A stretch of DNA of 33,143 bases from Chiloscyllium plagiosum (lineage: Eukaryota), in the NCBI RefSeq assembly GCF_004010195.1, contig NC_057718.1, forward strand, positions 95,027,994 to 95,061,136. The letters are read 5' to 3'. This document shows positions 1,610 through 32,244 of the stretch, piece after piece. The notes under the pieces were generated by a model. The model worked only from the letters and a program-made list of their open reading frames with translations. It was not told the DNA's origin and made no database searches. Both the position numbers and the translations under genes were made by a program. The stretch's first letter is position 1. Each line of letters opens with the position of its first letter.

Positions 1610-1822
1610 AATGTAGGAGTAAATTACTGCAGATGCTGGAATCTGTACTGAAAACAACAAATGGTCAGACAGCATCCTTGAATAGAGAGCAATCTAACAT
1701 TTTTTAGTCTAGATGACCCTATCATAGCTGACTCTGAAGAAGAGTCAACTAGACTCAATGTTAGCATGCTCTCTCTTCATGGATGCTGTCTGACCCACTG
1801 GGATCTCCAGCATTTGTTGTTA
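1610..1822. mobile_element. Palindromic PLE-derived short insertion with TSD and a degenerate hammerhead
   Basis: Inverted arms GGTCAGACAGCATCC...AGTCTAGATGAC / GTCAACTAGACT...GGATGCTGTCTGACC, with CTGAAGA at 1734-1740. Flanked by GCTG(A)TCAACAGTTCTA (about 1593-1609 and 1823-1838). Confidence 0.75.
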
Positions 1823-1939
1823 GCTGTCAACAGTTCTACCCTACAGTATCGCACAGTAGCAGGACACATGGACATGTTTTGATGTGTATTTTAATTTGTC
1901 AACACAACAGCATTACTTCATATCAACGATATTATAATA

Positions 1940-2812
1940 TCTGCTCTTCATAGTTCCTCTGTGCTGCAGTGTATGATGGCTCATTTAAATAATGAGCTCA
2001 TGCAGCTTCGTTTGTGGGTGTTGGGATGGTTGCTCTGTAGTTCAGTATTTGGTCCATATGTTTTTTCCTGTAGATGTTGGTTTTGTCTACACACTGCAGT
2101 GTAGAAGAAAATCATCTACATTGTGTATTCAAAAAGAACGGGTCAATGACCACAGTCCACCAATTTCTCAACAAGCCCAAACGAGCAGACAAAACACATC
2201 CAGAAACCCTAGCCACTCGACCCTACATCAAGGACATATCAGACACGACTGCCAGACTACTCAGACCTCTTGGCATCATGGTAGCCCACAAACTCACCAA
2301 CGCACTAAAAACAGTGACTAACGAACTTAATAGACCCTATACAGGCAACTAGCAAAACAAATGTCATGCAAGAACTGTAGCAAACACTACATTGGACGAA
2401 CAGGCAGAAAACTAGCCACCAGGATACAAGAACATCAACCAGCCACAAAAAGACATGACCCACTCTCACTAGTATCCTTTGACTGAGATGACACATCCAT
2501 CCCAGGACAAGCCAAACAGAGAGAGACACGAGAATTCCTAGTAGCATGGCATTCCAAATGGAACTCGATCAACAAAACATGTCGATTTGGAACCCATCTA
2601 CCACCCTCTGAGAAAAAGAACAGGAAATGACATCACCAACCCAAGGAAAGAAACAGCTAAACAGAAAGCAGGATATAGCACCAGTGCTTCATTAGACGCT
2701 CACTGAAGATGTTACCTAGTTGACGAAATGTTTGAAAATGAACCTTCCAACTCAGCGAGCAAACTTACATCCAGAACCTCAACCGGAGCTAAAAATCTTC
2801 TCAAAACTCGCA
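1940..2812 (+). mobile_element. Penelope-like element fragment (RT thumb-linker-GIY-YIG) with an inverted 5' segment
   Basis: The plus strand encodes VFKKNG...PYIKDISDTTARLLRPLGIMVAHK and HYIGRTGRKLATRIQEH (GIY-YIG YIG motif). 1940-2085 carries the preceding RT-thumb region (IYRK...DQILNY...HPNTHKRSC) on the minus strand. The terminus has a hammerhead-like core at 2703-2732. Confidence 0.9.
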
Positions 2813-2824
2813 AACTTGGATTGT

Positions 2825-3175
2825 GTTTGCTAAAGCATTGGAGGTGGGGAGGACTACCTGGTGGAAGTATATAAAGTTATGAGAGGATAGATAATGGGAG
2901 TCCTTCTCCCCCAGAGTGGAAATGTCAAATAACTTGGGGGCATAGGTTTAGAGGAGATGTGCAAGGTAAGTCTTTTTGTTAAAAACACAGAGGGTGGTAA
3001 GTGCCACTTATACACTGCCATGGGAAATGTTGGAAACAGTTATGATGGCAACATTTAGACATGAGCAGGCAGGGGATAGAGGGATATAAACCACGTGCAG
3101 ATAGATGGGGTTAATTTAGAATGCACCACAGTCAACACATATACAGTAGGCTGAAGGCCTAGTCCTGTCCTACAT
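2825..3175 (+). mobile_element. CR1 LINE 3' fragment, degenerate
   Basis: GGAAGTATATAAAGTTATGAGAGG...ACACAGAGGGTGGT...GGCTGAAGGCCTAGTCCTGT. Confidence 0.75.
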
Positions 3176-3644
3176 AATATCTTTATGAGATATCCTCTGT
3201 CCAGAATGAATGTGATTTTTAGTCTACAATGTTTATAAATGCCCATAAAAATATCTTGGAAATTCCAGAGTGTCTAATTCCATCATTTACCTCTTCAATC
3301 AATATAATTTACCCACAGCAACAAACTGGTATTAAACACAATTATCTCATTTAGTCACCAGTCTGAACACGATTTTTACCAAAAATGTTCACAGGATTGT
3401 AATTCATTTGTATTTTGAAAGTTTAAAAATCCTGAATCACAACCAAAGGGTATGGGGGTTGCTAATTTTTATGACCTGTTATTATCTGATCATCAGAATA
3501 TGCAGCAATTTTGTGATATCTTCACATGTTCTATTGCAAGCATTTCCTGTACTGAAAATGTTTATTTTTAACCTTTTGTCACTTTGTTTTCCTGTTTCAA
3601 TCACTAAGTGACTGCTTAAATCAACTTACAAGATGAACTATGCT

Positions 3645-3760
3645 GGAGATCAGTTTGCTCACTGAGCTGCAAGGTTCATTTTCGTGAAAATGACCCTTCC
3701 AGCTCAGCAAGCAAATTTACATCCAGAACCTCAACCTGAGCTACAAATCTTTTCAAAATA
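3645..3760. mobile_element. Short hairpin PLE terminal fragment with a 9-bp TSD
   Basis: GTTTGCTCACTGAGCTGCAAGGTTCATTTTC / GAAAATGACCCTTCCAGCTCAGCAAGCAAA are inverted. The right arm matches the terminus at 2733-2810. AACTATGCT occurs at 3636-3644 and 3761-3769. Confidence 0.8.
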
Positions 3761-4177
3761 AACTATGCTTTCCTAATGGCTCTGCTTATTAAGGTTAGGA
3801 TGTTTCACTGTGTTATGCAGAGACGTCCTTGTTAGAAAAATGAAAGGCCTCAAAAGTTCCCTGGATAAGAGGTAAATAAAGTTGTAGGGCTTTTGAGGCA
3901 TTGTGGGAGTGTCCCTATCTCTGGGTCAGATGGTCTAGGTTTAAGTCCTACCTATTTCAAGCATGTGACATAACATTTCTGAACAGGTTGATTAAAAATA
4001 GCTAAAGCAAAATAGTTAATCAGCCCAGGGTTCCTGCTGCTGATGATATGCAATAATACTGCTCGGGATTTGCGTTTGTGAAAGCAGGTGAAGATTTTGA
4101 TTACCTTCCCGCACACAGTCAAACTGTGAGCACACATCGACTATCCAAACTCACAAGGGAGTGGCTAAAAAAGCATG

Positions 4178-4272
4178 AACTCTGAAGAGTCATACCAGAC
4201 TCAATACCTTAGACTTGTTTCGCATTCCAGAGGCTGCCAGGCCTGCTGAGTTTTTCCCAGCATTCTCTGTGT
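4178..4272 (+). mobile_element. Short PLE terminal fragment
   Basis: CTGAAGAGTCATACCAGACTC...GCTGCCAGGCCTGCTGAGTTTTTCCCAGCA. Confidence 0.65.
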
Positions 4273-4510: not shown

Positions 4511-4597
4511 GAAGGGCTTATGCCCGAAATGTCGATTCTCCTGCTCCTTTGATGCTGCCTAACCTGCTGTGCTTTTCCAGCAACACATTTTTAAGCT
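4511..4597 (+). mobile_element. 5'-truncated PLE terminal insertion with a 15-bp TSD
   Basis: GAAGGGCTTATGCCCGAAATGTCGATTCTCCTGCTCC...CCAGCAACACATTTT, flanked by ATATTTATTAA(T/C)CAA at 4496-4510 and 4598-4612. Confidence 0.85.
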
Positions 4598-4637
4598 ATA
4601 TTTATTAACCAACCCAATATCACTCTCAATCCCTCCC

Positions 4638-4923: not shown

Positions 4924-4924
4924 A

Positions 4925-5876: not shown

Positions 5877-5957
5877 TCTGAGGAATGTTACCTGATTTCT
5901 CTCCACAGATGCTGCCAGACGTGCTGAGTTTTCTAGCAATTTCTGATTTTGTTTGTG
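5877..5957 (+). mobile_element. Short PLE terminal insertion with a 13-bp TSD
   Basis: CTCTCCACAGATGCTGCCAGACGTGCTGAGTTTTCTAGCAATTTCTG, flanked by AAGGGAATTTAGT at 5864-5876 and 5958-5970. Confidence 0.8.
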
Positions 5958-6144: not shown

Positions 6145-6440
6145 AGGGGGTTCAATTCCAGCCTCGGGCGACTGTCTATGTGGAGTTTGCACATTCTCCC
6201 CGTGTCTGCATGGGTTTCCTCTGGGTGCTCCTGTTTCCTCCCACAGTGCAAAGACGTGCAGGTTAGGAGAATCGGCCATGCTAAATTGCTCAAAGTGTTT
6301 GGCGCATTAGTCAGGGGTAATTACAGGGTAGGGGAATGGATCTGGGTGTGAGACTCTTCAGAGGGTCGGTGTGGACTTGTTGGGCTGAAGGGCCTGTTTC
6401 CATACTGTAGGGAATCAAATCTAACCTAATCTAATCCAAT
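6145..6440 (+). mobile_element. HE1-type SINE (elasmobranch)
   Basis: B-box GGTTCAATTCC, central TGTGGAGTTTGCACATTCTCCCCGTGTCTGCATGGGTTTCC, GGCCATGCTAAATTG, and a CR1-like tail ending in (CTAAT)n. Confidence 0.9.
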
Positions 6441-8607: not shown

Positions 8608-8712
8608 AGTTCTGAAGAAGCACCACATCAGACTCAAAACGTGACTGCTGCTTCTCTCCCGACAGATGCTGTCAGACCTGCTGAGTTTCTCTAGAGCTTT
8701 CTGTCTGTATTC
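8608..8712 (+). mobile_element. Short PLE terminal fragment with a degenerate hammerhead
   Basis: CTGAAGA 8612-8618...GACTCAAAACGT...CAGATGCTGTCAGACCTGCTGAGTTTCTC. Confidence 0.7.
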
Positions 8713-8934: not shown

Positions 8935-9490
8935 AATGGGACTGTACAGGACATCGGGTGGGCCACGTTTAGAATGCAGCATTCAGATCCAGTTTCCCTG
9001 CTACAGGAAAGATGCTGTGAAACTTGAAAAGGTTCAGAAAAGATTTACGGTTTGAGCTGCAGAGAGAGGCTGAATAGGCTGGGACTTATTCACCTGGAGC
9101 ATCGGAGGCCGAGGGGTGACTTTATAGCAGTTTACAAAATAACGAGGTGTACAAGGAAGGTGCATGGCAGAGGTCTTTTACCTATGGTGAGGGATTTCAA
9201 ATCTAAGGGACTATTTTTAAAGGTGAGGGGAGAAAGAGTTTTAAAAAAGACATTGGGACAATTTTGTTTTTACATGGCATGGTTTATGTATGGAATGAAC
9301 TTCCAGAGGAAGTGATGGATGCAGGTACAGTTACAACATTTAAAAGATATTTAGAGAAGTTCATGAATACGAAATATACAGAGGGATATGGGCCAAGCAC
9401 AGGCAGGTGGGACTAGTTTAGTTTGGGATTAGGGTCAGCATGCACTGGTGGAACTGAAGGGTCTGTTTCCATGCTGTATTACTCTATGGC
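8935..9490 (+). mobile_element. CR1 LINE 3' fragment
   Basis: ORF 9052..9315 reads SCRERLNRLGLIHLEHRRPRGDFIAVYKI, the CR1 ORF2 end. The tail GGGACTAGTTTAGTTTGGGATT is shared with 14815 and 24870. Confidence 0.9.
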
Positions 9491-10610
9491 TTTAGTCATT
9501 ATTACAGATGAATAGATTGACTGTAGGTAAACAACTATGAACTGTCAATGCGTAATACTACTAATTTAAGACTCTTCATTCCCTCCACACAGACAGAGAT
9601 ACACAAAGAAAAATTGGTGTTATGGATGGAGGTGAAATAAAAGGATGGGGGAGCATTCCAATGGTACCAGTACACCGGGTTTGCTCAGATGATCATTTTG
9701 TTTTCCAGGATTTTCTGCTTTTCATTCTCTTCTCCAGGTACTTTTTACTTCTCCGCAGGAGTCTCAGGCAATTGGTACATTAACTACAAAGTCTCTTTGT
9801 TACTTCCTAAAAGCCATAGCTTACAGTAATTGGTGAGGAGAAATAAATTATCTTTCTTTAGGCTTTAAGTTATTTACTGGAGAAAAAAGATGCACCTCCT
9901 CTCTTTTCAGCTGTGCAAAGTCTTTTGCCAGTATCATTCACAGCCACAAGTTGATCATCCCTACACGAATCAGATCGTTCTCACCATGCCTATGGCATTC
10001 ACAATTGGTCACAACTCCACAGACCAATCAGCACCCTGTTGCTGGCTGAATCTTACTTGATACCCATCCCCTTGCTTCTGGTCCATCAACAAACAGCCTT
10101 GAACACTGAACATGAATTAGAATAACTTAGTTTCAGCAGCACTTTTATCCCCAAAATGTCAGCAATTCCTCCCTCAGTTCCTTGCTCTAGGACAGTCCTT
10201 ATTCCATTTCAGTAAACAATTACGCTTACAGAAAAATAAAACATTGTGCTTACATTAAAGAAAGTATGTCCATTTACTTGACAGCTGGACTAGTCTTGTT
10301 GACCTCTCTCAATTCATGCTCCTATTCAACAGATGGATTATTGGGGGGCTTTGCAGAGAAATCAGAAAGAAGCAATATCTCCAGAATAAAAAAAAGAAAC
10401 AAATCTACATATTCCAAAAAGGAGGAACAACATTTGGAACTAACATTCCAGGTCAATGACTTTTGTCAGCAGTTCTGGCAAATGGTCAACAATGTTACAT
10501 GTTAACTGCATTTCTCTCTTTCCTGAAACCTGTTGAATACTCCCAGGAGTTTCTGTTTATAATTTCAAATTTTGAAGTATCTCCAATATTTAGAGCTTGG
10601 CCTCTCTGTG

Positions 10611-11456
10611 GGGCAGCACAGTGGTTAGCACTGCTTCCTCTCAGCACCAGGGACGCTGGTTTAATTCCAGCCTCTGGCGACTGTGTGTGTGGAGTTTGCA
10701 CATTCTCCCCGTATCTGCATGAGTTTCCTCTGGGTGTTCTGGTTTCCTCCCACAGTTCAAAGGTGTGCAGATTAGGTGGATTTGCCATGTTAAATTGCAC
10801 ATAGACTCCAGGGATGTGCAGGCTACGTGCATTAGTCATGGGAAATTGAGTCATAGTCATAGACATAGAGACGTACAGCATGGAAACAGACCCTTCGGTC
10901 CAACCGCCCATGCTGACCAGATATCCCAACCCAATCTAGTGTCACCTGCCAGCATCCAGCCCATATCCCTCCAAACCCTTCCTATTCATATACCCATCCA
11001 AATGCCTCTTAATTGTTGCAATTGTATCAGTCTCCACTACTTCCATTGGCAGCTCATTCCATACACGTACCGCCCTCTGAAAAAGTTGACCCGTAAATCT
11101 CTTTTATATCTTTCCCCTCTCACCCTAAACCTATGCCCTCTAGTTCTGGACTCCCCTACCCCAAGGAAAAGACTTTGTTTGTTTGCCCTATCCATGCCCC
11201 TCAATTTTGTAAACCTCTATAAGGTCACCCCTCAGCCTCCAACTCTCCAGGGAAAACAGCCCCAGCCTGTTAAGCCTCTCCCTACAGCTCAAATCCTCCA
11301 ACCTTGGCAACATCCTTGTAAATCTTTTCTGAACCCTTTCAAGTTTTACAACATATTTACGAAAAGATAGGGGGATGCTCTGGATGCTCTTTGGAGGATC
11401 AGTATGGACTCAATGGGCTGAATAGCCTGCTTCCGCACTGTCGGGATTCTGTGATT
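10611..11456 (+). mobile_element. HE1-type SINE split by a CR1 insertion (5' part 10611-10847, 3' part about 11368-11456)
   Basis: tRNA-like head GGGCAGCACAGTGGTTAGCACTGC and central TGTGGAGTTTGCACATTCTCCCCG. The sequence resumes at GGATGCTCTTTGGAGGATCAGTATGGACTCAATGGGCTGAAT. Confidence 0.85.
10848..11360 (-). mobile_element. CR1 LINE 3' fragment nested in an HE1 SINE
   Basis: Begins with the reverse tail GAGTCATAGTCATAG...ACAGCATGGAAACAGACCCTTCGGTCCAAC and contains ACCTCTATAAGGTCACCCCTCAGCCTCC. Confidence 0.9.
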
Positions 11457-12547: not shown

Positions 12548-12826
12548 GGGCAGCACTGTGACTCAGCGGTTCCATTCTACCCTCAGGCAACTGTCTGTGT
12601 GGAATTTTTACATTCTCCCACAGTCCAATGATGTGCAGGTTAGGTGGATTGGCTGTGCTAAATTGCCCCGTGGTGTCCAGGAATTTCCAGGCTAGGTGGA
12701 TTAACCATGGTAAATGCAGAATTATGGGTATAGAGTAATGGGTCATATTTGGACGAGATGCTCTTCAGAGGGTCCGTGCAGACTTGGTGGGCTGAATGGC
12801 CTCTTTCCACACTAAGGATTCTATGG
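12548..12826 (+). mobile_element. HE1-type SINE, internally deleted
   Basis: GGGCAGCACTGTGACTCAGCGG...CTGTCTGTGTGGAATTTTTACATTCTCCCACAGTCC...GGGCTGAATGGCCT. Confidence 0.8.
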
Positions 12827-12834
12827 ATCAGTAG

Positions 12835-13175
12835 TCAACAAGGGTGGTGCTGGAAAAGCACCAGCAGGTCAGACTGCATCAAAGGAGCAGGAGAGTTGAC
12901 GTATCAAGCATAAGCAAGTCGTGAGGAATGTGGAGGGGGAAGATATGGATGAGAGATAAATAGGGGATGGGGGAGGGGGCAGGTGTGAAGGCGATAGGTG
13001 AATGCAGGTGCGAGGCAACTGTGATAGATTGGTAGGGAAGGTGGAGCAGATAGGTGGGAAGGAAGATGGATAGGTGGGATAGGTCAAGGCCAGGGTAGAT
13101 CTAAGATGAATTGGGGGGTGCGGAGATTTGGATACTGGTGAAGTCGACGTTGATGCCGTGTGGCTGAAGGGTTGA
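12835..13175 (-). mobile_element. Penelope-like element 3' terminal region
   Basis: GTGGTGCTGGAAAAGCA...CAGGTCAG..GCATCAAAGGAGCAGGAGAGTTGACG followed by a purine-rich GATAGGTGG tract, homologous to 18911-19170. Confidence 0.8.
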
Positions 13176-13199: not shown

Positions 13200-13300
13200 T
13201 ACAGTCACTAGACCGGAAACATTAACCCTGATTTCTCTCCACATACCCTGCCAGACCTGCTGAGTTTTCCCAGCAATTTCGGTTTTTGTTTCTGATTTCC
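13200..13300 (+). mobile_element. Short PLE terminal fragment
   Basis: GTCACTAGACCGGAAACATTAACCCTGATTTCTCTCCAC...CCAGACCTGCTGAGTTTTCCCAGC, the same family as 16905-16990. Confidence 0.75.
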
Positions 13301-13924: not shown

Positions 13925-14004
13925 CACTCCAGTTTTTAGCCATCTTGAACATGTTTGCAGCTCTGGCGAACATTTCACATGCCTCTTCCACTCTTGTGTT
14001 GCCT
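13925..14004 (-). CDS. NAPB: Beta-SNAP coding exon 2
   Basis: Acceptor tttttcttaacag|A, 80 nt, donor G|GTGAGT. It encodes (G)[26 protein letters not shown](A), in phase with exons 1 and 3. GNTR..EM is beta-type (alpha-SNAP has GSSK..EI). Confidence 0.97.
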
Positions 14005-14391
14005 CTGTTAAGAAAAACAACATTAAAGATTTAACATACCACGAAATTTTGTTCCATTTTAATGCCTGAAGAGTTCTGCCTTGCCCCTCGACTTTCCAAA
14101 CATTGTCGCAATCAAGATTGGAGATGTGTTTGTACAACATACAAATTCTGCCCTTCTGCTGTTGCTTGACTCAATAAAGTCACATCTGATCTGTTTGGGT
14201 TTCAAATTCCACACTCCTGTCTGCTCCTAATAACCTTTGATTCTCTCCTAACAAGAATCTAATAAACTCAGATCAAGTATATTCAGTGACCCACCACTTT
14301 GAGGCAGAGAGTTCCAAAGTTCCACAACCCTCAGAAAAATAATTCTCCTTATCTCTGTCCTAAAAAAAAGTGACCTAAAACCCTGTACTAT

Positions 14392-14886
14392 GTCCAGTTC
14401 TGGTCACCCTGTTATAGGAAGGATATTATTAAGCTGGAGAGGGTTCAGAAAAGATTTACCAGGATGTTGCCAGGAATGGAGGGCTTGAGTTATAAGGATA
14501 GGCTGGGACTTCTTCCACTGGAGTGTAGGAGGTTGAGGGGTGACCTTATAAGGTCATGAGGGGTATAGATAGGGTTAATGGTAGATACCTTTGCCCTAGG
14601 ATGGGGGATTTCAATGCTAGGGATGATATTTTTAAGGTGAGAGGATAAATATTTAAAAAGGAGGGGCAATTTTTAAGACAGTGTGGTTCTTATGCGTAAT
14701 GAACTTAGAGGAAGTGACAGATGCAGGTACAGTTACAATGTTTAAAAGAGGTTCAGATAAAGTACATGAATAAGTATTGTTTGGAGGGGATGTGGGCCAA
14801 GCACAGGTGGTGGGAACTAGTTTAGTTTGGGATTATGGTCAGCAAGGACTGGTTGGATCGAAGGGTCTGTTTCTGTGCTGCATCAC
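14392..14886 (+). mobile_element. CR1 LINE 3' fragment, apparently nested in an older minus-strand CR1 remnant (about 14270-15130)
   Basis: CAGTTCTGGTCACCCTGTTATAGGAAGGATATTATTAAGCTGGAGAGGGTTCAGAAAAGATTTACCAGGATG. The flanks GGCAGAGAGTTCCAAAG and ATCAAGTCACCCCTC are reverse CR1 motifs. Confidence 0.85.
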
Positions 14887-18479: not shown

Positions 18480-18720
18480 CTCTTTAATCCGCCCACAGGA
18501 CAAGACAGCGCAGCGACTGAGCCCCTGACTCCGCCAGCTGATCGGAGGCCACGCCCCCTCCCCGTGGACCAGCCGCCGCACGAAGCATGCCGGCTATTGT
18601 AGTCCTATCTCTCCCAGCGCTTCCAATACTTCCGGCGCTCGACCGGCAGCTACAGGACTACAAGTCCCAGAGGGCCAATCGCGCCCTGCCTGCCCAGACG
18701 CCAAAGAGCGAGAGATTGTA
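18480..18720. promoter_or_regulatory. CpG-rich NAPB promoter with bidirectional architecture
   Basis: Local CpG/GC enrichment about 150-380 bp upstream of the NAPB ATG. Motifs: CCGCCC 18489-18494; GGCCACGCCCCC (KLF/SP) 18547-18558; minus-oriented GGACTACAATAGCCGGCATGC 18585-18605; CCAAT 18623 and 18675; ETS ACTTCCGG 18628-18635; plus-oriented ACTACAAGTCCCAG 18657-18670. Confidence 0.85.
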
Positions 18721-18774: not shown

Positions 18775-18961
18775 GTAGCAAGGTTTTTTTTAAAATGCAG
18801 ACTACAGAATAAAACTTGCATCGGATAAAATGCAAGTTTTGTTTTTAATCCTTCCTTACCTCTGGTCAATAATAACCTGAGGGTTACCATTGACTAGAAA
18901 TCAAGTTGGAAATGTGTTGCTGGAAAAGCGCAGCAGGTCAGGCAGCATCTAGGGAACAGGA

Positions 18962-18999
18962 GAATCGACGTTTCGGGCATTAGCCCTTCTTCAGGAATG
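18962..18999 (-). ncRNA. Minimal hammerhead ribozyme motif, intact core
   Basis: The minus strand reads CATTC-CTGAAGA-AGGGC TAAT GCCC-GAAA-C-GTC-GATTC. It has the CUGANGA and GAAA cores, a 4-bp stem II and a GUC site. Helix I pairing is only about 2 bp. Confidence 0.7.
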
Positions 19000-19231
19000 A
19001 GGAAAGTTGGTCCAGCAGGCTAAGATAAAAGATAGGGAGGAGGGACTTGGGGGAGGGGCGTCGGAAATGTGATAGGTGGAAAGAGGTCAAGGTGAGGGTG
19101 ATAGGTCAGACTGGGGTGGGGGAGGAGAGGTCGGGAAGAAGATTGCAGGTTAGGAAGGCGGTGCTGAATTCAAATTCAGCACCGCCTTCCTAACCTGCAA
19201 TCTTCTTCCCAACCTCTCCGCCCCCACCCCA

Positions 19232-19706
19232 NNNNNNNNNNNNNNNNNNNNNNNNNNNNNNNNNNNNNNNNNNNNNNNNNNNNNNNNNNNNNNNNNNNNN
19301 NNNNNNNNNNNNNNNNNNNNNNNNNNNNNNNNNNNNNNNNNNNNNNNNNNNNNNNNNNNNNNNNNNNNNNNNNNNNNNNNNNNNNNNNNNNNNNNNNNNN
19401 NNNNNNNNNNNNNNNNNNNNNNNNNNNNNNNNNNNNNNNNNNNNNNNNNNNNNNNNNNNNNNNNNNNNNNNNNNNNNNNNNNNNNNNNNNNNNNNNNNNN
19501 NNNNNNNNNNNNNNNNNNNNNNNNNNNNNNNNNNNNNNNNNNNNNNNNNNNNNNNNNNNNNNNNNNNNNNNNNNNNNNNNNNNNNNNNNNNNNNNNNNNN
19601 NNNNNNNNNNNNNNNNNNNNNNNNNNNNNNNNNNNNNNNNNNNNNNNNNNNNNNNNNNNNNNNNNNNNNNNNNNNNNNNNNNNNNNNNNNNNNNNNNNNN
19701 NNNNNN
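19232..19706. other. Assembly gap (475 N)
   Basis: Run of N. Confidence 1.
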
Positions 19707-19939
19707 GGGTAATGCCCGAAACGTCGATTCTCCTGTTCCCTAGATGCTGCCTGACCTGCTGCGCTTTTCCAGCAACACATTTCCATCTCTGATCTCCAGC
19801 ATCTGCAGACCTCACTTTCTCCTCATAGAAATCAAGTTGGACTAGCCAATTCTATAAGATCATATCAGAGACTATGAATCCTCTGGTGAGAATTCCACCT
19901 CTTCCCAAAGCCCTGTCCACCAAAACACAAGTTAGGCGT

Positions 19940-20497
19940 GTGGCAGAATATTCCCAACTTGCCTCGGTGAATGCAGTGTCAATAAAGTGCAGAGCTGGAA
20001 AAACCATAGCACTCAAGCAGCATCAGAGGAGCAGGGGAGCCGATGTTTCAGGTCAGGATCAACAATACAATGCCAACCATCTCAAAGCAGCCCACTTAAC
20101 AGGCACCACATCCACAAACATTCACCACCTCCATTAATGCTCAGCAATAATGGTATTACCATCTAAATGATGCATCGGTGAAATTCACCAAGGCTCCACT
20201 GACAGCACCTTCCCAAGAAACTGCCATCTAGAACAATAAGGGCAACAGAAACATGGGAGCATCACCACTGCAATTCCCCTCCAAGCCATCACCGTACCAA
20301 ATATATTATCATTCCTTTAGCGTTCCTGGGTCAAAATCCTGGAACTCCCTCCTGTACAGCTTTGTAGGTCTACCTACAGCAAATTGAGTGCAGCCATTCA
20401 AGGCAAATTACCAACACTCTTTTCAAAGGCATTTATGGTTGGGCAATAAATGCTGGCCCATTCCAATGATTCCTACATCCCATGAAGGAATAAAAAA
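19940..20497 (+). mobile_element. L2/CR1-group LINE 3' end, with a short PLE fragment at about 19990-20060
   Basis: CAAAGCAGCCCACTT...GGCACCACATCCACAAACATTCA...GGGTCAAAATCCTGGAACTCCCTCC...GGGCAATAAATGCTGGCC...CATCCCATGAAGGAATAAAAAAAA. Related tails occur at 21485-21565(-), 25095-25230(+) and 26225-26300(-). Confidence 0.7.
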
Positions 20498-21067
20498 AAT
20501 CCTTGAATCCCAAATATTCCAATGCCCTCTACATTCTACACTTTATAAACTAGGTACCATCCAAAACATCCAGTTCTCTTATCACCTCTGTGTTCACTGA
20601 CCTATTTGGATTAACCCATTCAATTCTCATCTTCGTTTTCAGCTCTTTCCAAGTTCTGTCTGCAGACCTGACCCCAAGCTTCCAGAGTCCTACCACTTCA
20701 TCAGAATATCTCTAATTTCTCCCAGTTCTAATAAGACATCATCGACCAGAAATGTCAGCTCAGTTTCTCTCTCTCTCCATAGATTACACCTGATCTGTGA
20801 TCACTTGCAGCATTTTCTATTTTTAATACCATACTGAGAAAAAAACAGATCAAGTCTCACAAAAGTGTGTAGCAGCTTGGGCAGTGCATTCTAGTGACAG
20901 CCAGGTTCCATGAAAACACGTACTAATGGAGCACACATATTTGTAGGCATCCAATCCCTTATTATATACTGCTTACATTTGACACGAGGCTACATTATTC
21001 CTTTGCAAACTCCAGGATCCTGTTTGGGAGGTGCAAGGATTCAGATTATTGGCACTATAATTAAATT

Positions 21068-21271
21068 GGAGAGTGTGGTGCTGGAAAAGCACAGCAGGTC
21101 AGGCAGCATCCAAGGAGTAGGAGAATTGACGTTTCAGGCGTAAGCCTTTCATCAGGCTTCTGCTCGAAACATTGATTCTCCTGCTCCTCAGATGCTGCCT
21201 GACCTGCTGTGCTTTTCCAGCACCACACTCTCAACCCCGATCCCCAGCATCTACAGTCCTCACTTTCTCCT
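21068..21271. mobile_element. Palindromic PLE-derived short insertion with a degenerate 14-bp TSD
   Basis: GAGAGTGTGGTGCTGGAAAAGCACAGCAGGTCAGGCAGCATC / GATGCTGCCTGACCTGCTGTGCTTTTCCAGCACCACACTCTC form a perfect 42-bp inversion. ACTATAATTAAATT at 21054-21067 compares with ACTACAAGTAAATT at 21272-21285. Confidence 0.9.
21123..21158 (-). ncRNA. Minimal hammerhead ribozyme motif, intact core
   Basis: The minus strand reads CTGATGA-AAGGC TTAC GCCT-GAAA-C-GTC-AATTC. The 5' helix I partner has been lost at the inversion junction. Confidence 0.6.
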
Positions 21272-22622: not shown

Positions 22623-22624
22623 TA

Positions 22625-23750
22625 GCACAGAGGCCGTTATCCTGTCACCAGGTCACTCTTTATTTACTTGGTGCACAGTGCACTGGCTGTGGCCAGCCAG
22701 CTCAGAGTCAGTCTCCTGAACTGAGGAGATTCTAAACCCCTTGTTTATATTTTGTACTTTTTTTCTAAATCTCACTGTTATATCTTTTATTTTAAGTCTC
22801 CTGGCTATAAATATTTTTTTTTCAATTCCCCACACTATTGCCTAACTGCGGTAGTGCTTACATTTTCCCCAACACCCGTGTTGTGTGCGTGCAGGTATGA
22901 GACACAGTGAAAGACAACAGGTGAATAAATCTTTATTCAATTTCCACCATCAGGAAGAAAGGAAACACCAGAGTATCCTTTGTTTTTTTTTTTAGCTGCT
23001 TGTGCATTCAGTACAGCCTGGTAAAAGAGAAAGAGAAACCCAAAAACCAAAAAAAAAACAAAAAAATGAAAACCAGAAGTCAAAATGTCTCTTCACTCAA
23101 AGACTGCTCCTCCTCTTCTTCTCCCTCCTCACAGTACACTGGCTGTGACCGGCCAGCCAGCACAGAGTCAGTCCCCTCCCTGACACAAAATGGAGAGTTG
23201 TTGATACTAATCCAGCTCCCTTAGAGCCAGCTCTGAGTGAACAGAACTTCTGGCACACCTGTATTTTCTTGTCTGACATTCCTGTTTTTTTTCTTTTTTC
23301 TTTTACAGAATCCCTGACTTTCCTTTTTTTAATGCTCATCCCTACACTACCGCCTAACTGCGCTAGTGCTTATTTATTCCCCAGCACCCATGTTGTGTGT
23401 GTGCAGGTGTGAGACACAGTGAAAGACACAAGGTTTACAAATCTTTATTCAATTTCCACCACCAGGAAGAAAGGAAACACCAAAGTATCTCTTGTTTATG
23501 TTTTTTCTTTGTTTTTACCACAGAAACCTAACATGAAATAACTCCACTGATCCAGCTTCCCCAGAGCCAGATCTCAGAGTGAACAGAACCTCAGACATCT
23601 CTCTTTATTTTTTTTTCCAGTCTCAGAGTGACAGGAGTTCTTATCCCTTGTTTATATTGATCAGCAAATGCCTCCTGATTGGCCCAGGTTAACAACCCCA
23701 ATCAAGGATCTCATAATCAATGAGATCCATTTGGTCCCAATCACTCCAAT
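22625..23750 (-). mobile_element. Probable solo LTR (Gypsy-type) with an internal duplication of about 450-500 bp
   Basis: Both ends match the LTR at 26640-26804 (AGAGGC..TATCC..TCACCA.GTCAC.CTTTATTTAC and GTTAACA.CCCCAATCA.GGA.CTCATA). The block at about 22675-23000 is repeated at about 23130-23510. Confidence 0.65.
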
Positions 23751-24599: not shown

Positions 24600-24948
24600 T
24601 TGTTTATAAAATAATGAGGGGTGTAGATAAGGTGAAAGGCGGGTGTCTTTTTCCCTCAGATTTCAAGACTCAAGGGCATATTTTTAAAGTGAAAAGTGAA
24701 AGATTTAAAGAAGGTGTGAGGGGAAATCTTTTTGCAGAGAGTGGTTTGTGTGTGGAATGAGCTTCCAGAGAAAGTGATGGATGCAGGTACAGTTACAACA
24801 CTTAAAAGACAGTTAAATAATTACATGAATAAGAAATATTTGGAGTGATATGGGCCAAGCACAGGCAGATGGAACTAGTTTAGTTTGGGATTATGTTCAG
24901 CATGGCTGGACCAAAGAGTCTGTTTCAGTCATCTATGACTCTATGACT
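24600..24948 (+). mobile_element. CR1 LINE 3' fragment
   Basis: GTTTATAAAATAATGAGGGG...TGGAATGAGCTTCCAGAG...ACTAGTTTAGTTTGGGATT...(CTATGACT)2 tail. Confidence 0.88.
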
Positions 24949-25250
24949 ACCGAGGGAACAGTTACATCACAACTTAGCACACAGGCTTAAACATATTCAC
25001 TAAACCTTCTCTGTATGGTCTTTGCCTGAAAGTTTTTGAATCACCATCAGATTCTGTAGCAGACACCATCACAGGAGTGTCACAGAAGGGTCAGAATCCT
25101 GAATTCCCTCCCTCATGGTATTGTGGATCAACCCACTGCAAGTGAAATGCAGCGGTTCGAGAATGCAGCTCACCATCACATTCTCCGGGTAATTAGGGAG
25201 GCCCACATCCCACAAAATCAATAAATTAAAAACAATATGATGTTAGACAT

Positions 25251-25810
25251 ATTGGGGAGGCAGGCCGCCTACTTGCGGAACATTTCAGAGAACACCTCTG
25301 GGACACCCGGACCAACCAACCCAACCACCCCGTGGCTCAACACTTCAACTCCCCCTCCCACTCCACCAAGCACATGCAGGTCCTTGGACTCCTCCATCGC
25401 CAGACCATAGCAACACAACGGTTGGAGGACGAGCGCCTCATCTTCTGCCTGGGAACCCTCCAACCACAAGGGATGAACTCAGATTTCTCCAGTTTCCTCA
25501 TTTCCCCTCCCACCACCTTGTCTCAGTCAAATCCCTCGAACTCAGCACCGCCTTCCTAACCTGCAATCTTCTTCCTGACCTCTCCGCCCCCACCCCTACT
25601 CCGGCCTATCACCCTCACCTTGACCTCCTTCCACCTATCGCATTTCCAACGCCCATCCCCCAAGTCCCCCCTCCCTACCTTTTATCTTAGCCTGCTGGAC
25701 ACACTTTCCTCATTCCTGAAGAAGGGCTCATGCCTGAAACGTCGATTCTTCTGCTCCTTGGATGCTGCCTGACCTGCTGCGCTGTTCCAGCAACACATTT
25801 TCAGCTCTGG
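25251..25810 (+). mobile_element. Penelope-like element 3' fragment (GIY-YIG C-terminal half plus terminus) with a 10-bp TSD
   Basis: Encodes IGEAGRLLAEHFREH...HPVAQHFNSPSHS...RLEDERLIFCLGTLQPQGMN. TGTTAGACAT occurs at 25241-25250 and 25811-25820. Confidence 0.92.
25711..25748 (+). ncRNA. Minimal hammerhead ribozyme motif, intact core
   Basis: CATTC-CTGAAGA(25716-25722)-AGGGC TCAT GCCT-GAAA(25736-25739)-C-GTC-GATTC. Confidence 0.7.
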
Positions 25811-26629
25811 TGTTAGACATGTCCCTTGTACTGTATCTGGGATCTGAGTGTCATCCCGCAGGTCCACCTGACACTCTTGGCTGGACCCAGATGCTGAGGC
25901 TCTTGGATACTACCTACCAAAGCTCCCTCCAAACAGTCCCCAAAATGCTGAAGGTGAAGTCTCAAAATATCCACAAGGGGGCTCACTGCCTGTTTCAGGA
26001 AGTCTCCCTGTCAGCAGACAAGCAGTGTAGCTGATCGTGGTTCTGCCATCTGCTCAGTTAATGGTGAAATGTGTCAAATCCTTCCATGCATGCGGCTCTG
26101 AAGAATAATATTGAACTTCACCATGACCCTTCCATCTGTTTTAATTACTGTAAGGCACATTTCAAAACTGCCATGTGACGACAATGCAGATCTCGCCTCT
26201 GAGATCTGCTGTGTTTTCTCTCTTTGCTCGTTCATTCAGGGAATGTGGCTGTCACCAGCAAGACTGGCATTTATTATCCGTTCCTAATCAGCTTTCAGAG
26301 GTTGACATTGAGCTGCCAAGTTTCACTGTGTGGGTGCAATCCCAGGCATTTCAGCTGCAATGTCTCTTTGCAATTCAGGAGAAATGTCTGTAAACTGGTT
26401 AGGAACTAAGACACCTTTCAGGTCACTACCAACATCCCAAGAAAGAGGTGACTGAAAATAAACTGTTTTTAGCTGAAATATAGTTGTGGTATTTTGATGG
26501 ATGTAATTCAAAATTCTGGCTTTGGATTCTATTCACAAGAACAGGAAGTTCTTGAATCATTTCTTACCGGCCTAGTTAGTTACCTTGCATTTCTTGTCTT
26601 TGAGAATTAGTGCAAAACAAAGGATAATG

Positions 26630-28420
26630 AGACTTCTGGAATAACTCCACAGAGGCAGTATCCCATCACCAAGTCACCCTTTATTTACACATGAACAGGC
26701 CTTGGCGATAGTACTGCCTCATTCAGAGTCAGCTACTGCGTTAACAGCCCCAATCAGGGAACTCATATTCTATACACCTGGCTGACCCCATTACACTCAC
26801 TACATCCCTCCCACTCTGAGTCTGAGGAGATAGGTCAGTCCTTTTTCTTGGAGACCCTCCTGGGGTGTTTTAGCACCAGGTCAGGTTCCTCTGTCTCTGT
26901 GTTGCATACCGACAGCGTGTAACACATGGGAGTTCGCCTCTTGCACCTAGAGGGCCTCTGGAGAATTTCGTTCCCTTCTTTCGGTAGCAAAGACATCAAG
27001 GTGGCTACACATCCATCATGTCCACCTCGGATTCTGAGCACTCGACAACATTTGAGGTAGAGGGTGAAGCCAGAGGTTCCTGCAGCCTTTCCAAATGTTC
27101 CGAGGGTCAGGACACATTTTGCGCCAACACTGTTGGCAAATTCATAGCTTTCATACGGTCCACATCCTTGTTCAGCACCACCATGCCTTCATGAAGTTTA
27201 AACATCACTGACCGTGACCTTGCATCAACCATTCCTCTTACCATCACTAGGCCATTTCCATGATTCACACCACAAACTTCAGCCCCAATATCAAACTCTC
27301 TCTCTCACACTTGGCAGAGTCCTGTTTCTGATATTACCATTCCTGATGCCGTAATACCTTCACCCCCAGGTCCGTGAATATCAGACTTAACCTGATGGCA
27401 ATTCATCTACCTTAGCAACTCTGTCAGTGCTATCCTTGTAGTTACATGTGGAATGGTCCTATAATCAAAAAGGAACCGGGACAGTTTAGTATCTAGGGAT
27501 AGTTTGGTATCTCGGGTCAGTTTGGTACCTGGGGACAGTTTGGTATCTCAGGTCACTTTGGTATCCAGGGAGAGTTTGGTACCTAGGGACATTTTGGTAC
27601 GTAGGGAAAGTTTAGTACCAAGGGTCAGTTTGGTACCTGGGTCATTTTGGTACCGAGGGACAGTTTGGTATCTCAGGACAGTTTGGTATCTCGGGACAGT
27701 TTGGTACCGAGGGACAAATTGGTATCTAGGGAGGCTGTAAGTTGTTTCTTCACTCCAGCCTTCAAAGTTTGGACTGCTCTTTCTGCCAAGCCATTGGATG
27801 ATGGGAGGTATGGAGTTGTCCTTATATGTCGAATCCCATTCAACTTCAAGACATAATCAAACTCCCTGCTGGTAGACAGTGGCCTGTTATCTGTGACCAA
27901 TACTTTCAGGTCTCCATAAGTTGAAAAAGATGTTTCTTCTATCATCATCCCAGTGTTTGACAAATGGACCTTGTGTACGTCCAACCACTTTGAGTGGGCA
28001 CCTACAATGACTAAGAGCATTGAACCCACAAAAGAACCTGCATAGTTGATGTACAACTGAGTCTAGTATTTACCCAGCCATTCCCATAGATGTGGGGCAG
28101 CTCCTGACTGTAAATTTTGTCTTTGTTGGCACTCAGGACACTGCCCCACCAAGGCAGCCAAGTCTGCATCCAAGCTTGGCCATCAGACATCACTCCTCAC
28201 CATTTTGGAGATCTCTAGATGCCCCTGGTGGAGTTCAGCCAGTTTTTGACCCAGACCTCCCAGCTCAGAGGCAGGGTCACTACCACTGTGCCACAAGAGG
28301 CCACAAAAGTGTTAGAAAACAACAACAAAGAGCCACACGTCAGCCAGAATCACAATAAATGGATCGCATGACTAACTTTGTCATCCTCTAGTATTATGCC
28401 ATTGGGAATACTTAAGTGTT
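26630..28420 (-). mobile_element. Gypsy LTR retrotransposon remnant: integrase, polypurine tract and 3' LTR
   Basis: ORF 27673..28056 reads INYAGSF..SMLLVIVGAHSKWLDV...VLVTDN...NGIRHIRTTPYLPSSNGLAERAVQTLK (rve core), continuing as LSRFLFDYRTIPHVTT after the minisatellite. On the minus strand the PPT GGGAGGGA directly precedes TGTAGTGAG (LTR start at 26804). Confidence 0.92.
27478..27732. repeat. 18-bp minisatellite, 14 units, consensus GGGACAGTTTGGTA(T/C)C(T/G)N
   Basis: Units counted directly from 27478. One unit (27622-27638) is 17 bp. Confidence 0.97.
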
Positions 28421-29120: not shown

Positions 29121-29251
29121 CCCTATTTGTCCTTCATCTGACCTCACTGACCCGATATATCTCATGATTTGGAGATGCCGGTGTTGGACTGGGGTGTACA
29201 AAGTTAAAAATCACTCAACACCAGGTTATAGTCCAACAGGTTTAATTGGAA

Positions 29252-29289
29252 GCACTAGCTTTCGGAGCGACGCTTCTTCATCAAGTGAT
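29252..29289 (-). ncRNA. Minimal hammerhead motif of a different PLE family, with one core mutation
   Basis: The minus strand reads CAC-TTGATGA-AGAAGC GTC GCTCC-GAAA-G-CTA-GTG. Helix I is CAC/GTG and the site is CUA. C3 has been replaced by T. Confidence 0.6.
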
Positions 29290-29663
29290 AGTTGAGGGCT
29301 CAATCGTAACACACAGAATTTATAGCAAAAATTTACAGTGTGAAGTAACTGAAATTATACATTGAAAAATTGATTGTTAAGTCTTTCAGCTGTTTGAATA
29401 CCATGAAATTTTCACTTCTTTCATGTGTAAATCACCAAACCTTTTTTTAAAAATTGCATTCTCAGGTTAGCTGTTAACAATGGGTGATAGCTAGACAATA
29501 TGTTGAAGGTGTTAACCCCTGTGTTCTCTGTCTATGCCATGAAGTTTAGATTGATTCTAATCTAAAAAATGAGATAACAGAGTTTTACATGAATTCATGT
29601 AAAACATGAGTTTTTGAGCAAAGTACAATGTAACCCTGCAAGTACAAATTCACCCCACAAAAT

Positions 29664-29930
29664 ATATGTGTGCATGTGGGTCTTTGTGTGTGTGTCTGTC
29701 TGTTTGGGTTGGGGGTGAGAGTGTGAGAAAGTGTATGTGTGTGTGTGTACTAAGTGTGGAGTGTCTTAAGTCTGTGAGGGGGTGCATGTGTGAGTGTGGG
29801 AGTGTGTGTATCTGTAAGGGTGTGTGTGGGTGTCTGTGTGCGCATTTGTGTATATGTGTGTCCGTGTGTATGCGTGTATAGGAGTGTGTGTGTGTGTGTG
29901 TGTGTGTAGGAGTATCTGTGTGTGTGTATA
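29664..29930. repeat. Degenerate (TG)n microsatellite region with a pure run at about 29884-29906
   Basis: Directly visible. Confidence 0.95.
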
Positions 29931-30796
29931 GTGCAATGGTGGTCATCTGTAGCGTTACATGAACCCAAGGTCCCGGTTGAGGCCCTCCCTATGGGTACCA
30001 AATTTAGCTATCAGCCTCTGCTCGGCCACTTTTCGCTGCTGCGTGTCCTGAAGTCGGCCTTGGAGGATGGTCACCCGAAGGTCCGAGGTCGAATGTCCTG
30101 GACCACTGCAGTGTTCTCCAACTGGGAGGGAACACTCCTGTCTGTTGATTGTTGTGCAGTGCCCATTCATCCGTTGTTGTAGCCTTTGCTCAGTTTCCCC
30201 AATGTACCATACCTCAGAGCATCCTTGCCTGCAATGTATAAGATAGACAATGTTGGCTGAGTCACATGAGTACCTGCCACATACATGATGGTGGTAATGG
30301 TGGTATCCACATCCACACTCTGATACGTCTTGCAGCGCCTACCGTGACAGGGTTGTATGGAGTTGTCCTGAAAGCTGGGCTGCTTGCTACAAACAATGAT
30401 CTGTTTGAGGTTTGGCGGTTGTTTAAAGGCAAGTAGTGGAGGTGTGTGGAAGGTCTTGGTGAGGTGCTCATCCTCAATGATAATGTGTTGCAGGTCATGA
30501 GGAACATGGTGTAATTTTTCAGCTCCTGGGAAATACTGAACAACAGAGGGTATCCTGTCGGTTGCAGCACGTGTCTGTCTCCTGAGGAGGTCATTACGGT
30601 TCCTTGCTGTGGCACGTCGGAACTGGCGGTCGATGAGTTGGGCATTGTACCCCATTCTTGTGAGGGCATCCCTGAGTACTTCCAGGTGCCCGTCACGTTC
30701 CTCCTCATCTGTGCAGATCCGGTGTATGCGTAGGGCTTATCCATAGGGGATGGCTGTTTTAATATGTTTTGGATGGAAGTATTTCCCAGGAGCTGG

Positions 30797-30935
30797 TGAA
30801 TTGGCCATGCTAAATTGCCCATAGTGTTCGGTGCATTAGTCAGAGGGAAATGGGTCTGGGTGAGTTACTCTTTGGAGGGTCAGTGGACTGGTTGGGGTGA
30901 AGGGCCTGTTTCCACACTGTAGGGAATCTAATCTT
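30797..30935 (+). mobile_element. HE1-type SINE 3' half
   Basis: TGAATTGGCCATGCTAAATTGCCCATAGTG...GAAGGGCCTGTTTCCACACTGTAGGGAATCTAATCT. Confidence 0.85.
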
Positions 30936-31139
30936 ATTGAGTTAATTCAATTGCAATTGGCCAATGGAAGAAGACTGAAAGGAACATGGGCTTCTCTGCT
31001 TGATAAAATGCAGTGTTCATAGTGATGGCATCCTGAAAACCAGTGACCTCCCTCCCATTGCACTGAAACATAGCGTGAATCTGGCCTCGCACCCTTAGTG
31101 GAATACTTCCTGTGCCATGACATTGATGGAAGACGGTTG

Positions 31140-31500
31140 GAAAACTTTAGCCTTCAGTCATGGTGTGGCCACTAACTCCTGCTCCTGAGTCAAGTTTCAA
31201 CTTTGTGTGCCAGCCATTAAGCATGACATGTACATACCAAAAATCCTCCGGTGGATCCATTGTGTCCAGGGTGATGGTGACCCTCATACCTGTTGACTGT
31301 TTTGTTGCTGGCGCATTAGCAGCATTGACAAACTGGACTGAGTCAGAGTGGACAGTCTGGTCCCACACACCCTCTCTATCCTTCCAGCTGAATAGCTTGT
31401 TCAGTTTGTGAAGTTCAGCCTGCCTGGTAAACAGCCTTGGCCAACATAAGGTCCTTTTTAGACTGCAGGAATTCTGATAAAGTTTCCTCCAACATCCTCA
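31140..31500 (-). mobile_element. Gypsy gag-protease remnant
   Basis: ORF 31147..31368 reads WYVHVMLNGWHTKLKLDSGAGVS, a retropepsin D-S/T-G motif in a typical context. Confidence 0.7.
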
Positions 31501-31905
31501 CTCTGATACGATCTCTCTTGAGCTCCTCTGTCAATGTCCAATATTCGTGATGTGGCATAGTAACTTTATAAAGAAATAAATGTTTTCACTGGGTGCACCA
31601 TGGTGAATTGTGCCTAATCTATTGTAGTGCCATGTTGAAAACTAAAGTCTGAAATAAAAGCTTTGAGGGCTTCTTTGTAGTTGGCACGTTCATCATTGAT
31701 GCAAATAAGAATGACAAAATGCTGCTGATTGTCTTCTTTAACAAGACCCCCGACAGGCATGGCCTCCAATTTCATAAAATTGATTTTATACCCCGAGACA
31801 GAACCAAATAGATTGATCACTTGTATTAAACGGGGCACAGATATCGTTGGGTTTGTTAGAAAGAGAAGAACATCATCTACATAAAGGGTGATCTTATGCC
31901 CTCCT

Positions 31906-32106
31906 GAGTCTAGATTATGGTGGTGCTGGAAAAGCACCATTCCTGATGAAGGGCTTTTGCCCAAAACATCGATGTTCCTGCTCCTCAGATGCTACCTGAC
32001 CTTCTGTGCTTTTCCAGCACAGCCCTTCATCAGGAATGGTGCTTTTCCAGCACCACTCCAATCTAGACTCTGGTTTCCAGCATCTGCAATGCTCACTTTT
32101 GCCTGA
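31906..32106. mobile_element. Rearranged palindromic PLE-derived short element
   Basis: GAGTCTAGATT..GTGGTGCTGGAAAAGCACCATTCCTGATGAAGGGC and its reverse complement GCCCTTCATCAGGAATGGTGCTTTTCCAGCACCAC..AATCTAGACTC. Hammerhead CTGATGA is at 31943-31949, with GAAA decayed to AAAA. Confidence 0.88.
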
Positions 32107-32244
32107 GGAGAAAGTGAGGTCTGCAGATGCTGGAGATCAGAGATGGAAATGTGTTCCTGAAGAAGGGCTAATGCCCGAAACGTCGATTCTCCTGTTCCCT
32201 AGATGCTGCCTGACCTGCTGCGCTTTTCCAGCAACACATTTCCA
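32107..32244 (+). mobile_element. Young PLE-derived short insertion with a perfect 14-bp TSD
   Basis: TCACTTTTGCCTGA occurs at 32093-32106 and 32245-32258. The body is essentially identical to 19710-19822 and has an inverted copy of the 3' end at its 5' side. Confidence 0.92.
32153..32190 (+). ncRNA. Minimal hammerhead ribozyme motif, intact core
   Basis: TTC-CTGAAGA(32157-32163)-AGGGC TAAT GCCC-GAAA(32177-32180)-C-GTC-GATTC. Confidence 0.7.

Follow-up and report, generated by a model that had tools for sequence, protein, structure and literature searches.

The stretch analyzed here, a window of 33,143 nucleotides from the genome of the shark Chiloscyllium plagiosum (NCBI RefSeq assembly GCF_004010195.1, contig NC_057718.1, positions 95,027,994 to 95,061,136 of the forward strand; all coordinates below are those of the window), is rich in terminal fragments of Penelope-like elements (PLEs) and in the minimal hammerhead ribozymes that these carry, and our main subject is the place at which the short fragments begin. 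Self-comparison and alignment, with the count made by hand, recognize 21 PLE-end insertions, 16 of them shorter than 250 bp, in four terminal families (A to D), in agreement with the minimum of four that a first-pass annotation, made from the letters alone, had proposed. A direct repeat of at least 8 bp flanks 11 of the 21 (scripted search). The insertions and their main features are as follows, with 5' ends counted from C3, the C of the conserved CUGA of the hammerhead core (TSD stands for target-site duplication, pLTR for pseudo-long terminal repeat, RT for reverse transcriptase, and EN for endonuclease).

32107-32244 (+), family A mini insertion with two arms, 138 bp long; the inverted tail arm occupies 32107-32155 and the forward arm runs from -3 as far as the first 3' end; TSD of 13-14 bp
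32157-32184 (+), intact minimal hammerhead core; 4-bp stem II, ACGU palindrome, helix I of 2 bp + U.U + G.U
31903-32106 (+), short family A insertion, older and doubly inverted, with its forward arm from -4/-5; core 31943-31970 mutated (G12, G16.2)
25251-25807 (+), 5'-truncated long copy of family A, Neptune-type; GIY-YIG C-terminus and pLTR; TSD of 10-13 bp
25712 (+), A at -4 from C3, start of helix I; best-supported mixed-flank 5' junction among the rows listed, in three runs
25716-25743 (+), intact minimal hammerhead core; predicted cut after 25743
21068-21271 (both strands), family A head-to-head insertion, 204 bp; minus arm from -1, plus arm from inside stem II, with tail; TSD of 14 bp with 2 mismatches
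21128-21155 (-), intact core with the base of helix I broken (descriptor scan and folding)
18911-19825 (both strands), single family A head-to-head insertion, about 0.9 kb; arms join about 177 nt upstream of C3 (19171); tail 19786-19825
18967-18994 (-), intact minimal hammerhead core (descriptor scan)
12836-13175 (-), old long copy of family A; EN C-terminus and pLTR; decayed core; TSD of 11 bp
4511-4597 (+), short copy of family A, broken within a core that lacks CUG; TSD of 15 bp with 1 mismatch
545-620 (+), old short copy of family A with its start in stem II; no TSD found; approximate ends
19994-20052 (-), old short copy, family A-like, with its start in stem II; no TSD found; approximate ends
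1610-1826 (both strands), family B head-to-head insertion; both arms from about -4; decayed cores; exact TSD of 12 bp
10384-10577 (both strands), old family B head-to-head insertion; arms from -4 and -1; 8-bp direct repeat
4178-4270 (+), family B short copy from -4; core mutated; 3' end approximate
8608-8710 (+), family B short copy from -4; GAAA mutated; 3' end approximate
16896-16995 (+), family B short copy from -3/-4; core mutated
20726-20825 (+), old family B short copy from -4; ends approximate
5877-5957 (+), family B short copy; exact TSD of 13 bp; ambiguous 5' end, either -4 with an internal deletion or in stem II
13205-13300 (+), short copy of family B with its start in stem II; approximate ends
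16507-16600 (-), family B short copy broken inside the core; TSD of 8 bp
2074-2812 (+), truncated copy of family C, Penelope/Poseidon-type; GIY-YIG remains; core 2703-2732; 5' end approximate
3645-3753 (both strands), family C head-to-head mini insertion; no ribozyme core; TSD of 16 bp with 2 mismatches
29164-30777 (-), truncated copy of family D, 1.6 kb, Neptune-type with a CxxxxCxxC linker; RT C-terminal region, GIY-YIG and pLTR; ends approximate

The 18911-19825 insertion has a 475-base assembly gap within its second arm and a TSD of 12-16 bp, and one 16-bp direct repeat (18895-18910/19826-19841) encloses both arms. The 32107 insertion is nested in the tail of the older 31903 copy. Where coding remains are present, they match shark proteins (from Chiloscyllium punctatum and Hemiscyllium ocellatum) at 80-83%. 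Family A counts nine insertions, its long copy (25251-25807) placing the terminal module downstream of the GIY-YIG C-terminus, and named relatives of this family carry the RT, the GIY-YIG domain and a cysteine linker. Family B also counts nine, all short, with no long copy within the window, and it remains a candidate for a non-autonomous family. The position of the pLTR 3' of the RT/GIY-YIG open reading frame is seen for families A, C, and D, and a Zn-finger-like linker between RT and EN is present in D and in the relatives of A and D; this linker was not seen in the truncated copy of family C. As the linker is the criterion separating Neptune from Penelope/Poseidon elements (Craig, 2021, PMC8557442), families A and D are placed with the Neptune type, and C with the Penelope/Poseidon type, by this criterion.

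That the window is dense in PLE minimal hammerheads is real. A scan of both strands with a strict descriptor (exact CUGANGA, a bulged base, a 4-bp stem II, GAAA, a two-base helix III and UH) recovered five cores, where 200 dinucleotide shuffles gave 0.06 on average and never more than 1; looser matches numbered six, vs. a mean of 0.67 and a maximum of 3. Four of the five, at 18967-18994(-), 21128-21155(-), 25716-25743(+), and 32157-32184(+), are exactly those that had been annotated as intact from the letters, and the fifth, at 2703-2732(+), had been taken for a mutated or partial motif; its core is intact, with the palindrome lost. Of the other motifs annotated as mutated or partial, those at 1734, 4182, 4511, 8612, 29256-29284, and 31943 hold up as such, and the one at 19707 does not, being broken by the assembly gap and belonging to the second arm of the insertion that carries 18967-18994. 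An unpaired base between positions 9 and 10.1 is present in all five strict cores, a feature listed as typical of PLE hammerheads (Cervera and de la Pena, 2014). The G10.1-C11.1 pair is G-C in three of the five (G.U at 25716, A-U at 21155). Helix III is a palindrome without a loop, as had been annotated, ACGU in 4/5 intact cores and AGCU in the hammerhead of family D (29256-29284), in which C3 is mutated. Helix I consists of 2 bp, a U.U and one further pair in family A and of 3 bp in families C and D; in 21128-21155(-) the core is intact and the two helix-I pairs adjoining it fail to form. No canonical type I hammerhead with a looped helix III was found in the window, only the minimal form, and an Rfam scan of the window returned 26 weak matches, none to a hammerhead family at E up to 10. 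All the motifs fall within the pLTR and tail, the terminal module of PLEs of the Neptune and Poseidon types, an arrangement already known. The earlier description of many carriers as short and non-coding does not suit the motifs at 2703, 25716, and 29252, which end long copies with persisting GIY-YIG or RT coding remains.

What sets the short copies apart is where they start. C3 is kept in at least one arm of 14 of the 21 insertions, six are broken 3' of C3, and the 5877 copy was left out of the 5'-end count as ambiguous. Among the 14, the 5' ends are bimodal: nine start 0-6 nt before CUGA, five extend for more than 170 nt, and no 5' end lies between -7 and -170. In family B, agreement among the copies sets in with the A of AGTT, at -4, and upstream of it they have nothing in common; single-arm copies with this edge are those at 4178, 8608, and 20726. 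The sequence CATTCC is kept in three long family A copies with differing upstream sequences. The earlier proposal that the short copies are more than random truncations is thus borne out, their 5' ends piling up at one place, -4 from C3. The further proposal of an independent non-autonomous class fares less well: the 5' end is indeed fixed, but the young short family A copy (32154-32244) is identical at 91/91 positions to an arm of the longer 18911 insertion, and the inverted tail of the 32107 insertion at 49/49. As a class driven by its ribozyme, the short copies find no support, since tandem arrays are absent, most templates were uncut, and head-to-head arms cannot form a ribozyme dimer. The predicted cut, after 25743, falls 32 nt downstream of 25712, and as the copies start about 32 nt upstream of the cut site, the templates of the short class were uncut. 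Only one of the 21 insertions, the family C insertion at 3645-3753, has both of its arms beginning at the predicted cut site (2733 and 2734 in the long copy).

Two arms lie head to head in 7/21 insertions, with a TSD found for six of the seven, and junctions and arm lengths differ in every two-arm copy; the arms are often very unequal, 49 and 91 nt in the case of the 32107 insertion. Arms of family A stop at one or other of two points, roughly +88 and +125 from C3, with about 37-40 nt between them, and a tail of about 37-40 nt is present on one arm only (18911-19825, 21068-21271, and 32107-32244). The tails of family A (19786-19825) and family D (29164-29200) end in pyrimidine-rich tracts resembling splice acceptors, and the family D tail ends at ATG, which may point to an intron and the start of an open reading frame downstream of the hammerhead.

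Further support for the boundary comes from public sequencing runs. Four runs were aligned to 25235-25834, of which three gave alignments (X1, possibly the source sample, incompletely counted; X13, a second species label; and X21), and one (X22) gave 0 reads. Among the 18 of 1589 loose-end rows examined, no 5' position other than 25712 shows mixed flanks in every one of the three runs; it has loose 5' ends in 288 contigs of X1 (agreement 0.32), 300 contigs of X13 (agreement 0.32), and 170 reads of X21 (agreement 0.41). The flanks preceding it in X1 and X13 have an AT-rich consensus of low agreement, and amid these the letter before 25712 is G in the consensus of both DNA runs. Of the 12 joints with extra letters examined (of 75), seven fall at 25711-25713, and in 3/5 of those listed that lead to 25712 the last extra letter is G. 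In X21 the median raw-read depth across 25255-25614 is 81, and beyond this the depth rises to 245, 350, 1097, 1726, and 2213; the step from 25695-25714 to 25715-25734 is 3.1-fold, the largest among interior bins. A splice junction at -4 is unlikely, as there is neither an AG before -4 nor a constant upstream exon, and loose ends at 25736/25737 were ruled out as breakpoints, their consensus being the stem II of another subfamily. Single contigs join 25806 to 25712, 25801 to 25712, and 25809 to 25744, most simply by linking one short unit, at its 3' end, with the -4 start or the cut site of a following unit; these may be head-to-tail template jumps, of a kind that could seed tandems or pLTRs.

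A rough control only is provided by metagenomes, in which the hammerhead pattern was followed at 120 loci, and 124 arms from host DNA were clustered. Arms stopping within 6 nt amount to 4/50 of those with a known long form, vs. 9/14 in the window (Fisher p=4e-5), and family A alone, with 3/6 starting within 6 nt, still differs (p=0.02). Helix I positions 1-3 pair in 64, 69, and 62 of 79 metagenome contexts, above all 1000 shuffles, indicating that the motif class is under structural selection. Head-to-head hammerhead pairs occur in metagenome host-DNA contigs as well (L004, L044, L051, L078, L099, L119, and L120); an inverted arm is present in 15/77 arms, and most head-to-head junctions are within about 20 nt upstream of CUGA. 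The shark-specific 3' patterns had no match in metagenome contigs or viral contigs, and the minimal-hammerhead pattern had none in viral contigs. The latter pattern also matches nine prokaryote assembly loci (L121-L129), by chance, as ribozymes, or through host contamination.

As to the ribozyme itself, folding (an equilibrium prediction without magnesium or protein) gives pair probabilities of 0.78-1.0 for stem II in family A arms, while in naked RNA helix I is predicted to pair at less than 0.03 and ACGU to pair between molecules at less than 0.005. Helix I and helix II covary across families. Head-to-head arms were considered as a possible ribozyme dimer and ruled out, as they fold into a long hairpin that abolishes the ribozyme fold; for 21068-21271 the predicted hairpin, at -143 kcal/mol, removes it. 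The only close same-strand pair (31943 and 32157) includes one dead core. The Anolis PLE ribozyme cut only with protein (Frangieh, 2024, PMC11167929). The hammerhead is probably carried along rather than driving the short insertions and is probably silent in most copies. The 3645-3753 insertion, along with the contig joining 25809 to 25744, gives a hint of a minor class from cut templates, one in 21 and possibly due to chance.

The explanation that we favor, with moderate confidence, is that priming inside uncut PLE RNA gave rise to the short copies, as run-off cDNAs that stop where this RNA has its 5' end. Following the literature, the PLE protein would nick both strands of AT-rich DNA, and reverse transcription would start inside the element RNA at two neighboring sites 3' of the hammerhead, with the tail between them; the two places at which family A arms end would be such sites. 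Many arms begin at the A at -4, so that their template was uncut; this A would mark the RNA's 5' end, for which a capped transcription start would be the simplest account. Priming in the transcript's first pLTR would then run off after about 92 or 129 nt, and priming in a downstream pLTR would produce long, randomly truncated copies. Where both nicked strands prime, one per site, the two cDNAs would be joined head to head within one TSD. On this view autonomous PLE transposition would leave the short copies behind as by-products, dead on arrival and fixed at the 5' end, and the hammerhead would ride along because it is located between the RNA start and the priming sites. The sequence TCATTCC around 25712 fits the initiator consensus, with the A at -4 as +1. 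A copied cap leaves an extra G at the cDNA end, and the G before 25712 is a hint of such a signature.

A number of observations weigh against this explanation. Six of the 21 insertions break 3' of C3, and in the Drosophila virilis element transcription starts at 371, upstream of helix I by about 120 nt and with an intron (416-491) in between (Schostak, 2008; Cervera and de la Pena, 2014). No pile of RNA molecule starts is present in the alignments, the one RNA run that aligned being a single-cell polyA library and so a weak test, and no DPE-like match, as judged by eye, is found at +28 to +32. The 288 contigs of X1 are under 3% of the 10251 partly aligned ones, the positions neighboring the junction are unseen among the 18 of 1589 and 12 of 75 rows, and the G hint is weak, as the letter before 25712 is T in X21 and by construction can never be C. 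Long copies of subfamilies whose upstream sequences differ contribute part of the depth step, the 12836 copy failing to align upstream, and family B may contribute to the 3' depth peak. The metagenome control is a mixture of unknown hosts, selected for an intact core, and 23/77 of its arms also stop within 12 nt.

Among the other explanations, a SINE-like (short interspersed element-like) non-autonomous family, in which short master copies starting at -4 are transcribed on their own and use the PLE protein in trans, is unlikely for the short copies at large and most plausible for family B, all nine window insertions of which are short, with nothing in common upstream of -4. It would account for the fixed 5' end, the short unit contains the priming sites, and non-autonomous PLE derivatives have been described (Craig, 2021, PMC8557442; Li et al., 2026, 10.64898/2026.07.22.740005). 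However, the identity of the young short family A copy to a long arm (91/91, 49/49) and the differing junctions make by-products more likely than a master lineage in family A, the varying junctions and arm lengths of two-arm copies imply that the inverted half is not inherited from a master, and no tandem array is present in the window. Ordinary 5' truncation biased to short products, sharpened at -4 by microhomology, helix I pairing, or loss of alignment among subfamilies, is less likely still. The six insertions broken inside or beyond the core, the depth in X21 already rising from 25615, and the many metagenome arms stopping at 6-7 nt are what it would predict, and single motifs have been read as truncated PLEs before (Cervera and de la Pena, 2014); but truncation does not easily explain the empty interval between -7 and -170 in the window, the same base in three runs with two species labels, or loose ends at 25712 whose AT-rich flanks agree poorly and share nothing upstream, and a structure would be expected to stall the RT at its 3' side, not once passed.

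Self-priming, whether the template is antisense or a DNA hairpin, has been proposed for head-to-head PLE structures, and antisense self-priming has been argued for from such palindromes (Arkhipova, 2013, PMC3846280). With the hammerhead's edge as the favored point of fold-back, it would suit the seven head-to-head insertions, but the same -4 edge in the single-arm copies at 4178, 8608, and 20726, the very unequal arms, such as those of the 32107 insertion, and the dominance of mixed-flank junctions in the 25712 row make it very improbable. The least probable of all is a retrozyme-like cycle, in which the ribozyme cuts as a dimer and the cut or circular RNAs serve as templates. While the cut-site start of both arms of the family C insertion (3645-3753), the contig joining 25809 to 25744, and the covariation of helices I and II across families speak for it, a single insertion of 21 starts at the cut site, 25744 has no row among the 18 of 1589 loose-end rows listed, tandem units are absent from the window, and the low predicted pairing of helix I and of ACGU in naked RNA, the hairpin of 21068-21271, and the dead core in the only close same-strand pair all speak against it. 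To return to run-off from uncut RNA, a more far-reaching version of it, which we regard as rather doubtful when taken as a whole, would see the short copies as a strong-stop-like PLE product: a protein dimer would prime both nicked strands, using the two internal sites of a capped RNA that starts with the hammerhead's first base, shark insertions in their hundreds of thousands would record the start, the cap, and the two priming sites, family B would now be a PLE-mobilized SINE, and the cut-site class (3645-3753) would record cleavage in vivo.

The surroundings of these insertions are those of a gene and its repeats. The left 18 kb of the window are introns of a SNAP (NSF attachment protein, alpha/beta) gene on the minus strand.

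18241-18339, 13926-14003, and 1335-1451 (-), first three coding exons of the SNAP gene

No intact hammerhead core is present in the sense strand of this gene, and therefore no effect on the SNAP pre-mRNA is suggested. A G+C-rich stretch at about 18480-18700 looks like the SNAP promoter, with the young 18911-19825 insertion about 200 nt beyond it. A broken non-LTR (non-long terminal repeat) reverse transcriptase at 31614-32884 (minus strand; weak RVT_1 matches) is host to the nested 31903 and 32107 copies. An integrase-core remnant of an LTR-type element (27673-28062, minus strand; weak rve match) overlaps an 18-bp tandem array (27460-27750). Also present are a SINE-like repeat unrelated to the PLE ends (6149-6420, 10620-10850, 12550-12830, and 30800-30930), 3' fragments of long interspersed elements (about 8940-9480, 10870-11360, 14390-14890, and 24600-24950), and a pair of 180-bp direct repeats of 84% identity (22814-22993 and 23326-23505) inside a tandem duplication of about 512 bp.

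The short copies touch on the questions of PLE replication, of the origin of pLTRs and inverted ends, and of the role of the hammerhead. If they do end at the 5' end of the RNA, then the shark genome would be a very large natural record of template ends, the counts of junctions at -4 vs. the cut site would give the share of templates cut in vivo, and an untemplated G would locate the PLE promoter without an RNA experiment. They also serve as a warning that the 'genomic ribozymes' counted in such genomes may mostly be passengers.

Compared with the PLE minimal hammerheads described, those in the window have the same core, the bulge between 9 and 10.1, the palindromic 15.2-16.2 without a loop, and the pLTR location, and they share the occurrence mostly as single dispersed motifs, with opposite-strand pairs 100-700 bp apart, thousands per vertebrate genome. 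They differ in the 4-bp stem II and in the helix I of family A, which is weaker than the 4-5 bp described, and a fixed 5' boundary of solo copies is not reported in the parts of that literature covered. Non-LTR retrozymes (Cervera and de la Pena, 2020, PMC7229834; Li et al., 2026) are likewise short, non-coding, related to PLE pLTRs, and possess type I hammerheads, including tandem retrozymes derived from PLE pLTRs in one chondrichthyan (Li, Clavereau, and Pollet, 2026, bioRxiv 10.64898/2026.07.22.740005), and one of nine Xenopus dimers cleaved in vitro (same source). Retrozymes, however, form head-to-tail tandem arrays, with mostly canonical hammerheads and circular RNAs (PMC7229834; 10.64898/2026.07.22.740005), whereas here TSD-flanked copies with minimal hammerheads lie dispersed, either singly or head to head. 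No head-to-tail tandem units, each with a complete hammerhead, occur in the window, and with no such units and a minimal, not canonical, motif, the short copies are ruled out as tandem retrozymes.

There is also a close likeness to insertions of endonuclease-bearing (EN+) PLEs, with their pLTR, inverted 5' copy, and tail of 30-40 bp (Arkhipova, 2013, PMC3846280; Craig, 2021, PMC8557442), from which the head-to-head arms within one TSD, the one-sided tail, the nesting in own copies, and the TSDs of 8-16 bp are all familiar. Unlike in these, the arms here are often only 50-130 nt, stopping at the front edge of the hammerhead, and the random 5' truncation expected of EN+ PLEs holds for the five long copies and fails for the short class. 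The PAc Poseidon element of Anolis, studied in vitro, offers a parallel for the tail, which is bounded by two internal RT start sites; its protein cuts and extends both strands, uncut RNA is the main substrate, and no RNA-seq ends fall at the cut site (Frangieh, 2024, PMC11167929). Unlike this element, families A and D are Neptune-type, and that paper, in the parts covered, does not take up the 5' ends of genomic copies. For a fixed 5' boundary or a cap G in short PLE copies, or for shark PLE hammerheads, no paper was found in the openly readable literature, which leaves aside subscription papers, Repbase/Dfam, and supplements. Overall, the ribozyme type, the host element, the inverted architecture, and the existence of non-autonomous hammerhead elements from PLE ends (tandem retrozymes) are already known; what the shark copies add to these systems is the fixed 5' boundary of short PLE copies, along with the hint of a cap, a modest increment.

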